This document shows, in pieces, positions 1,242-1,433 of a stretch of DNA of 35,056 bases (its first letter is position 1; each line of letters opens with the position of its first letter). The position numbers were made by a program, and so were the translations under genes. Below the pieces are notes generated by a model. That model was not told the origin of the DNA. It saw only the letters and a program-made list of their open reading frames with translations, and searched no databases. The DNA comes from a virus (Duplodnaviria; Heunggongvirae; Uroviricota; Caudoviricetes): the IMG/VR virus record IMGVR_UViG_2778261316_000004; one strand, given 5' to 3'.

Positions 1242-1433
1242 TTATCGTGAGTTTTTAGTACAGATTTTTTTGGATTTACTAATAGTTCCATCATTGCAAA
1301 CGAATTTGCCATCTGAGGTACAGTGAGAAACACCTCCCTTTTTCCCTGAGCAGGGATAATTTCTAGCATAGGTAGTTAGTGGGTTTAATAACAAAGAACA
1401 TGACAAAACCACAAAAAATACCTTACCAAGCAT
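1242..1433 (-). CDS. Small (63 aa) predicted secreted Cys-containing protein; moron between cI and int
   Basis: ATG at 1431..1433 with GGAGGA RBS; hydrophobic N-terminus ([23 protein letters not shown]) then Cys-containing mature part; AT-rich; same strand as cI and int. Confidence 0.5.

Follow-up and report, generated by a model that had tools for sequence, protein, structure and literature searches.

The DNA analysed here, hereafter the window, is a 35,056-nucleotide (nt) stretch of tailed-phage sequence (IMG/VR record IMGVR_UViG_2778261316_000004; Caudoviricetes) and is a P2/186-like prophage of Escherichia coli. Between its repressor gene cI and its integrase gene int lies a 63-codon open reading frame (ORF), which we read with high confidence as a genuine YdcA-family gene whose product would be exported through a cleavable Sec signal as a basic 40-residue protein with two disulfides, and which would form an accessory part of the lysogenic operon (pL, cI, ydcA-like gene, int), transcribed with cI and translated from its own Shine-Dalgarno sequence. 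The function that we propose is more tentative: a putative role as a periplasmic binder of a polyanion, probably DNA, acting against incoming DNA is possible rather than probable, and to the explanation as a whole, the best available to us, we assign a probability of roughly 0.4.

The predicted product is identical to RefSeq WP_000900883.1, a "YdcA family protein" annotated in strain COL60J by the Prokaryotic Genome Annotation Pipeline (PGAP). The family is represented by Pfam PF27300, by the NCBIfam PRK10040 models (NF007462, NF007463 and NF007464) and by PHROG 6000. Against NF007463 (PRK10040.1-2) the window protein scores 115.8 bits over a cutoff of 93, its residues 5-63 covering profile positions 1-58 of 58, and it matches phrog_6000 at E 1.9e-34. 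Precomputed PF27300 matches are found on homologues and on a protein cluster, P0001, identical to the window protein; with the K-12-type model NF007462 the score is 68.5 bits, below the cutoff of 118. The protein is, in other words, already annotated as belonging to a named family (YdcA, PF27300) that has a chromosomal paralogue in E. coli K-12. When 1.84 billion representative proteins were searched with a profile, 443 family members were collected, most of them 55-130 amino acids (aa) long, and a literature search for the YdcA family, PF27300, PRK10040, b1419 and the RefSeq accessions returned no functional study. Several other assignments were set aside: the "ydcA" of plasmid pS88 is a different gene, a methylase; the local Pfam-A copy, which is older than PF27300, gave only GULLO2-like_3rd (E 0.075), taken as noise; a weak NCBIfam lpg1681_fam match (E 0.11) was disregarded; and a profile similarity to the first half of the LDL-receptor class A domain (E 0.03-0.1) is probably due to bias from the Cys pattern.

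The pattern of substitution is that of a protein-coding gene. Of 5426 complete E. coli genomes, 648 (~12%) contain its DNA, 628 of them at full length (at least 80% of the ORF), and the full-length matches were annotated as coding sequences in every row sampled. The window gene differs from a 94% identical allele by 11 synonymous changes and 1 non-synonymous change, a ratio of non-synonymous to synonymous substitution rates (dN/dS) of ~0.02, and between E. coli alleles this ratio is ~0.02-0.07. Across Enterobacterales the mature part has a dN of 0.03-0.09 with dS saturated; the signal-peptide region evolves several-fold faster, with dN/dS of 0.3-0.8. A chance ORF is excluded because the mature part is constrained and the signal peptide evolves faster, and the ORF is a real gene for what is predicted to be a secreted protein with a strongly constrained mature part. 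An earlier sequence-only reading of this DNA had proposed a real gene for a small secreted Cys-containing protein; the family hidden Markov model (HMM) matches and the purifying selection bear this out, export being predicted.

That reading had also described a signal-like hydrophobic N-terminus and several Cys, and both descriptions hold. The Kyte-Doolittle means of 11-residue windows reach 2.0-2.8, and of the five Cys one belongs to the signal peptide and the other four to the mature part. The signal region begins with a positive charge at K4, continues with the hydrophobic core and ends in T-Y-A before the predicted cut after Ala23. This -1 residue is invariant in 30 homologues, and the remaining signal varies to the point of being unalignable between genera. 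We infer from this layout a cleavable Sec-type signal peptide and hence a predicted periplasmic location, as has been predicted for K-12 YdcA, which is described as having a signal sequence (bioRxiv 10.1101/2024.02.12.579971). A lipobox candidate, VLSC at residues 9-12, was rejected: its Cys is not conserved, and where the Cys is present the -1 residue is unsuited.

The mature 40-mer has a mass of ~4.3 kDa, a calculated isoelectric point of 9.7, and 9 Lys/Arg against 2 Asp/Glu. Its four Cys (C28, C38, C46 and C58) are invariant in 46 sequences and should form two disulfides in the periplasm. The spacing in the window protein is C-x9-C-x7-C-x11-C, most of the family having x6 in place of x7, and 258 of 259 distinct family domains follow C-x9-C-x6/7-C-x11-C. 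The domain, of ~30 aa, is described by the motif CSGxKGG-x3-C-x6/7-FVCxDG-x2-S-x-SK-x2-C, to which the window protein conforms. Net charge is positive in 251 of the 259 distinct domains (mean +3.5). AlphaFold2, run on the 46-sequence alignment, predicts a short beta-hairpin with a predicted local distance difference test score (pLDDT) of 83-90 over residues 31-60; a Foldseek search against viral structures returned nothing below E 0.5. A subset of family members 100-190 aa long (P0056, P0080, P0087, P0089 and P0134) has a second, C-terminal Cys motif, CxCx5-CxGPRGGxYC...K.Y, with a weak match to Pfam PBCV_basic_adap (best E 1e-4).

The gene is closely coupled to cI. As the sequence-only reading had stated, it lies between repressor and integrase on the same strand (all three genes are on the minus strand), with a strong ribosome-binding site, the GGGAGG 5 nt before the ATG, in AT-rich DNA. 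The GC content is 35% for the ORF, 38% for the neighbouring cI, 49% for int and 52% for the window as a whole; AT-richness extends over the entire cI-ydcA module. Only 15 nt separate the cI stop codon from the ORF, and a consensus scan found no promoter-like site in this gap and no minus-strand terminator between cI, the ORF and int. Shine-Dalgarno-like motifs and short gaps (-1 to 49 nt) are likewise found behind cI in all 8 relatives examined. In phage 186, cI and int overlap by 1 nt and are annotated, together with orf69, as the pL (and pE) lysogenic operon, which in the phage 186 record ends at a terminator beyond orf69; the record of the Vibrio cholerae phage K139 likewise annotates cI to int as one PL operon. 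Because cI and int abut in 186, the ydcA-like gene is extra relative to that phage, and the ~380 additional bases between cI and int in the window correspond to the ORF and a 188-nt spacer. We predict from this operon architecture that the gene is probably co-transcribed with cI and so made in lysogens, because the gap is 15 nt, no minus-strand terminator intervenes and the same tight spacing recurs in relatives.

Signals on either side of the gene add detail to this picture. A minus-strand promoter-like consensus match, TTGACA-17-AAAAAT, lies ~25 nt upstream of the int start, and could give int transcription independent of pL. The ORF-int spacer also contains a plus-strand hairpin with a T-run, antisense to the lysogenic operon, and a minus-strand terminator-like hairpin with a T-run stands just upstream of cI. 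Seven terminator-like sites occur in positions 900-2450, compared with 1.3 expected from shuffles, and Rfam gave nothing meaningful in positions 900-2500.

The distribution of the gene is that of cargo with a preferred position. The order cI, YdcA gene 15-49 nt later, int is shared by three allele classes of E. coli, with protein identities of 61-98%, and by Klebsiella, Hafnia and Yersinia prophages, sometimes with a further gene between the YdcA gene and int. The same order extends to Haemophilus phage HP2, from a different genus of Peduoviridae: there we found an unannotated YdcA homologue of 60 codons, with its ATG overlapping the stop codon of cI and with orf1(S) and int after it, and the homologue is also present in S2. 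HP1 has no tblastn match to the ORF. Among 140 records of phages with a 186-type cI only 2, HP2 and S2, have the gene. Outside this position, Moraxella and Acinetobacter prophages have a YdcA gene in late-operon positions, and plasmids carry it as well, among them a mobilisable one of 3.9 kb from Acinetobacter and larger ones.

Presence and absence across related prophages had been put forward as a check on the earlier proposal: the gene is absent from 186, from HP1 and from those Klebsiella phages whose int is 97% identical or whose late genes are 95% identical. Because of these absences we conclude that it is accessory cargo in the lysogenic operon, predicted to be dispensable for the phage cycle. 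Nearly all carriers have an intact copy, and disruptions are isolated, as in E. coli strain a7, where the IS5-like element ISKpn26 lies inside the gene and parts it from cI. In the degraded P2-like prophage of E. coli B, as present in its derivative C43(DE3), the int, ydcA-like (WP_001321204.1) and cI genes are intact, and cII and the replication genes are truncated; the C43(DE3) allele departs from the window protein at a single residue (R24K). The spacer is conserved with the ORF at ~90% identity in more than 300 E. coli genomes, and in mosaic relatives that have exchanged int or the operator-proximal part of cI, the gene and the C-terminal part of cI remain together. The designation as a moron, made in the sequence-only reading, therefore needs qualification: the gene is accessory and prophage-borne, but no promoter or terminator of its own was found, its composition resembles that of cI and it is co-inherited with the C-terminal part of cI; the term autonomous, self-contained moron does not apply to it. 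The literature searched gave no conversion phenotype for any family member.

The cI-int interval receives other genes as well. Many relatives in E. coli and Klebsiella have, 11-13 nt after the ydcA-like gene and before int, a gene whose product, a KAP-family NTPase of 443 aa, matches the PADLOC defence candidate PDC-S20 at E 1e-171. The interval also holds a gene for a 350-aa protein in 4LV2017 and for one of 347 aa in Hafnia, as well as orf1(S) in HP2, and orf2 with glo in K139. Because the KAP NTPase recurs there, we regard the interval in enterobacterial prophages of the 186 type as a slot for cargo and defence; the corresponding interval of K139-like Vibrio prophages has been described as a defence hotspot by Rousset et al. 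(PMC9122126).

Clues to function come from the company that the domain keeps. YdcA domains occur in tandem arrays of 2-3 copies joined by Ser/Lys-rich linkers, and an N-terminal YdcA domain placed after a signal peptide is fused to SNase (1 protein), to a DNA/RNA non-specific endonuclease (3 proteins) and to a PLD/Nuc-like domain (1 protein), that is, to three unrelated catalytic folds; precomputed Pfam architectures agree with these fusions. A P2-like phage contig carries the SNase fusion, next to gpD, gpU and the tape measure gene. One further YdcA domain is fused to the periplasmic domain of VasL, a type VI secretion system protein. Between E. coli and Haemophilus, Moraxella and Herbaspirillum the mature domain hardly varies, and because this near-invariance spans Gamma- and Betaproteobacteria we favour a universal ligand rather than a fast-evolving partner. 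Taken together, the positive charge, the arrays and the fusions to nucleases suggest that the candidate ligand is a polyanionic polymer, most simply nucleic acid.

Only one solved structure has detectable similarity to YdcA, that of Legionella Dis2 (Lpg0823; PDB 7MUC chain AN). The hmmsearch E-value is 3.9e-4 with the full-length profile, to which the signal peptide contributes, and 0.08 when only the domain is used. Foldseek returns E 0.048, a probability of 0.99, a template modelling score of 0.43 and 38% identity over 39 columns, and hhalign a probability of 69%. The motif common to both is CS-K-x-GG-[IV]-x-x-C-x5-G-x-x-VCN-[DN]-G-x-x-S, which in Dis2 takes the form CS-K-MGGINYC-x5-GRLVCNNG-x2-S, and a Dis2-like protein, P0328 (P0329 was also noted), carries a precomputed PF27300 match. 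Dis2 appears to be a tandem of two YdcA-like lobes, the similarity being borderline.

We envision the following mechanism. The mature domain would be a disulfide-stapled cationic module with affinity for a conserved polyanion of the periplasm, below the outer membrane, nucleic acid being the likeliest candidate. Made by the lysogen and free-standing, the protein would bind DNA, or occupy the site of its entry into the periplasm, and so hinder entering DNA, be it that of a superinfecting phage or conjugative or transforming DNA. The result would be protection of the prophage and its host, and the ydcA-like protein would be a functional counterpart, not a homologue, of the K139 protein Glo. Two lines of background are in keeping with such a role: the family rides on prophages and plasmids of the naturally transformable genera Haemophilus, Moraxella and Acinetobacter, and periplasmic DNases encoded by mobile elements are known to block transformation, namely IdeA/SxnA of an integrative and conjugative element (ICE) of V. 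cholerae and Dns of CJIE1 in Campylobacter jejuni (reviewed in PMC12378983). A broader form of the idea, which we hold to be doubtful, is that the YdcA domain may be an unrecognised extracytoplasmic nucleic-acid-binding mini-fold common to the free proteins, the secreted nucleases and the lobes of Dis2; phage copies behind the repressor would then let lysogens coat or trap periplasmic DNA and block superinfection, conjugation or transformation-mediated prophage curing non-enzymatically.

A number of observations weigh against our explanation, and several of them speak for an envelope role. E. coli is not readily transformable. pL was not located in the window, and with the promoter-like site before int the transcripts may be structured differently. 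PADLOC returned no match for the ORF, and the searches detected no known DNA-binding fold. The nuclease fusions are rare, being metagenomic with 1-3 members each, and would equally fit a domain that anchors enzymes to the envelope. The VasL-domain fusion points to envelope binding, not DNA binding, and Dis2 adjoins the outer membrane and touches lipoproteins, not the translocation channel (PMC12716638); together the two point to an envelope component under the outer membrane. Finally, deletion of the chromosomal ydcA (K-12/W) is reported to confer sensitivity to 3-hydroxypropionate, and the gene to be acid-induced via YdcI (PMC7642389), a phenotype that suggests envelope or stress physiology. 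From these points an alternative can be built in which the domain is an envelope adaptor or stress factor that binds a lipoprotein (in Dis2 the contacts are DotK, DotC and DotD), the peptidoglycan-associated layer or anionic lipid head groups, to which cationic surfaces are also suited, and not DNA. The prophage copy would then act like the chromosomal YdcA, as a fitness-type conversion gene improving envelope robustness towards acid or organic acid, and the intact int-ydcA-cI segment of the degraded E. coli B prophage fits such a benefit. This alternative explains less directly why the domain was recurrently fused to three nuclease folds, although anchoring is possible, and the remote homology to Dis2 on which it draws is weak (domain-only E 0.08, Foldseek E 0.05, hhalign 69%). 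The phenotype, moreover, is a single one, from one study and of the chromosomal paralogue, and it is lost in a yieP deletion background (PMC7642389). We consider the envelope alternative somewhat unlikely, if a serious one.

A smaller share of probability goes to superinfection exclusion directed at proteins, in which the peptide would bind the tail tip, tape measure or ejection proteins of a phage, or a receptor or channel, and block genome delivery with no binding of nucleic acid. K139 Glo, the P1 protein Sim and Ltp of TP-J34 are believed to block genome delivery in such a protein-targeted manner. Operon slot and compartment are the same as those of K139 Glo, expression in the lysogen is predicted, and the slot holds the PDC-S20 candidate in relatives and is a hotspot in K139-like Vibrio prophages; there is, however, no homology to Glo, the near-invariant mature domain and the chromosomal copies better fit a universal ligand, and nuclease fusions and tandem arrays are left unexplained, so that we judge it unlikely. 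A secreted antimicrobial or bacteriocin-like peptide, or its immunity factor, had been among the possibilities named in the sequence-only reading, and a small, cationic, disulfide-rich protein with predicted secretion is what one would expect of it. Yet the signal is of the Sec type, with no double-glycine leader, and Sec in a Gram-negative cell delivers to the periplasm only; the neighbours are cI, int or the KAP NTPase, and neither the window nor its relatives have a gene for immunity, modification or export alongside; Pfam and NCBIfam contain no bacteriocin family that matches; and K-12 has a housekeeping-like chromosomal paralogue. This possibility is very improbable. Still less credit is due to the view that there is no protein function at all, and that the ORF is a chance AT-rich frame or a translated spacer tuning int expression: it is short, AT-rich and dispensable (absent from 186), but the family HMM matches, the 11:1 ratio of synonymous to non-synonymous changes, the near-invariance of the mature part at saturated dS, and full-length copies in 628 E. 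coli genomes with isolated disruptions only effectively refute it.

Coordinates of the features discussed are collected in Table 1, in which L and P numbers are our own handles for loci and proteins.

Table 1. Features of the cI-int region of the window and of related loci.
Feature	Sequence	Positions	Strand	Description and basis
ydcA-like gene	window	1242-1433	-	63 codons, ATG start, stop 1242-1244; ORF list, NCBIfam NF007463, phrog_6000
Predicted Sec signal peptide	window	1365-1433	-	codons 1-23; hydropathy profile, -3/-1 rule
Mature peptide (predicted)	window	1245-1364	-	codons 24-63, 40 aa; sequence, family alignment
Shine-Dalgarno GGGAGG	window	1439-1444	-	5 nt upstream of ATG, inside cI-ORF gap; sequence
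cI repressor, 186 type	window	1449-2018	-	Pfam Phage_CI_repr E 3e-31, Phage_CI_C E 5e-29; PGAP
Spacer, ORF stop to int start	window	1054-1241	-	188 nt; conserved together with ORF
Tyrosine integrase int	window	1-1053	-	350 aa from PGAP start; Pfam Int_N, Phage_integrase; PGAP
Promoter-like site	window	1106-1078	-	TTGACA-17-AAAAAT; consensus match
Hairpin with T-run	window	1188-1204	+	in ORF-int spacer
Terminator-like hairpin with T-run	window	2142-2124	-	upstream of cI
apl/cox-like gene	window	2164-2367	+	weak Phage_Cox/HTH_17 matches; PGAP
cII	window	2423-2941	+	Phage_CP76 E 3e-42; PGAP
KAP NTPase	L011	4198-5529		PADLOC PDC-S20
KAP NTPase	L008	1142-2473		PADLOC PDC-S20
KAP NTPase	L015	4198-5529		PADLOC PDC-S20
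Fusion protein P0124	L034	5001-5669		
Fusion protein P0177	L033	5001-5663		
Fusion proteins P0185, P0204, P0196, P0119				
HP2 YdcA homologue	NC_003315 (L001)	2486-2668 (2920-3102)	complement	60 codons
C43(DE3) ydcA-like gene	NZ_CP011938 (L029)	873129-873320 (2641-2832)		WP_001321204.1
ISKpn26 in ydcA-like gene, strain a7	L009	2501-3838		IS5-like
Moraxella ydcA-like gene and membrane-anchored protein	L004; L025	3126-3578; 3686-4384		

The surroundings identify the type of prophage. The cI product has 189 aa from the PGAP start, the open frame extending to a GTG at 2105, and int is the last lysogenic-operon gene visible, its stop codon being the start of the window. The divergent plus strand carries the apl/cox-like gene, cII, fil and the remaining 186-type early region in the layout of phage 186, and the first two of these place the locus in a 186-type switch. 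The late region of the window is 95% identical to that of P2-like phages of Klebsiella, and int is 97% identical to that of Klebsiella phage 4LV2017. Three mosaic joints can be placed around the gene. Homology of int to the Klebsiella phages stops at ~1111-1154; one E. coli group shares 1265-2200 with the window and has a different int and a different C-terminus of the ORF (joint at ~1265); and a large group shares 1100-1991 (~90%) with a different cI N-terminus and operator region (joint at ~1991), and therefore has a different immunity type.

Neighbouring genes elsewhere in the family were also compared. In Moraxella, both in phage Mcat17 and at an M. bovoculi locus on the chromosome, a gene for a membrane-anchored protein with the same 30 N-terminal residues follows the ydcA-like gene; the pair points to a two-gene module or to what is left of a prophage. 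Beyond these two similar Moraxella membrane proteins, no conserved downstream partner was found in HP2, Moraxella, Acinetobacter, Hafnia, Herbaspirillum and K139. A gene for HxsD lies near two unrelated YdcA loci, those of a metagenomic Endonuclease_NS fusion (L033 2622-4021) and of a 101-aa Herbaspirillum protein (L028 1257-1580), with a radical-SAM gene as well at one of the two; the neighbourhood may recur or be coincidental.

We see the ydcA-like gene as a plausible conversion or exclusion factor. The fixed place behind a 186-type cI in several genera, the missed HP2 gene, the nuclease fusions and the link to Dis2 may be new. If the protein acts in the envelope of lysogens, the gene would represent a very widespread and unstudied prophage function, given its presence in ~12% of complete E. 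coli genomes and in relatives on Klebsiella, Yersinia, Hafnia, Haemophilus, Moraxella and Acinetobacter elements. It would then also provide a first functional handle on the orphan ydcA, on the secreted-nuclease module and on the Dot/Icm subunit Dis2. If the protein is instead a minor envelope accessory, the analysis still documents a conserved extra gene in 186-type lysogenic operons and still shows the cI-int interval to be a cargo and defence slot in enterobacterial P2-like prophages. The question is directly testable, as the 40-residue mature peptide can be synthesised and existing lysogens are suited to deletion and complementation.

Among known systems, YdcA of E. coli K-12 (b1419) is a true homologue with a common signal peptide and Cys domain. 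The K-12 gene, a chromosomal singleton flanked by cybB/rydC and hokB, is too divergent for a DNA-level match to the window gene in most genomes; the window gene is prophage cargo in a lysogenic operon. A parallel in position is Glo of phage K139, a P2/HP1-type phage of the Peduoviridae, where a gene for a signal-peptide protein lies between cI and int just as the window gene does. The K139 record gives the order PL, cI, orf2, glo, int, with Glo beginning MMRLLPLLLLFSTSAFA, and its GenBank annotation describes Glo as a "periplasmic protein; involved in phage exclusion", a role also given in a passage of a citing paper (PMC4870250). Glo and the window protein are nonetheless not homologous: hhalign gives 2.8%, the signal peptides alone aligning. 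Glo has 137 aa and is not Cys-rich, and the exclusion phenotype is documented for Glo only.

Dis2 offers a structural comparison. It has 124 aa in two similar lobes with five disulfides, and is present as a stoichiometric subunit, in 13 copies, in Dot/Icm, a type IV secretion system, where it touches DotK, DotC and DotD; published descriptions call it Legionella-specific, without homologues or structural neighbours (PMC8486379, PMC12716638). Both proteins are small, secreted and pinned by disulfides (predicted for the window protein), but the window protein consists of one lobe, with four Cys in its mature part, and lies in a P2-like prophage neighbourhood with no type IV secretion context. 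With the moron concept the window gene shares its residence on a prophage, its dispensability, a base composition that is AT-rich relative to the genome, and expression that would come from the prophage; it departs from that concept in having no detected promoter or terminator of its own and in being inherited with the cI transcription unit. IdeA/SxnA and Dns, finally, are extracytoplasmic proteins of mobile elements that act on incoming DNA, and the YdcA-nuclease fusions recall them (PMC12378983). Unlike these enzymes, the window protein has no catalytic domain, and any effect that it exerts on incoming DNA would come through binding, not degradation.

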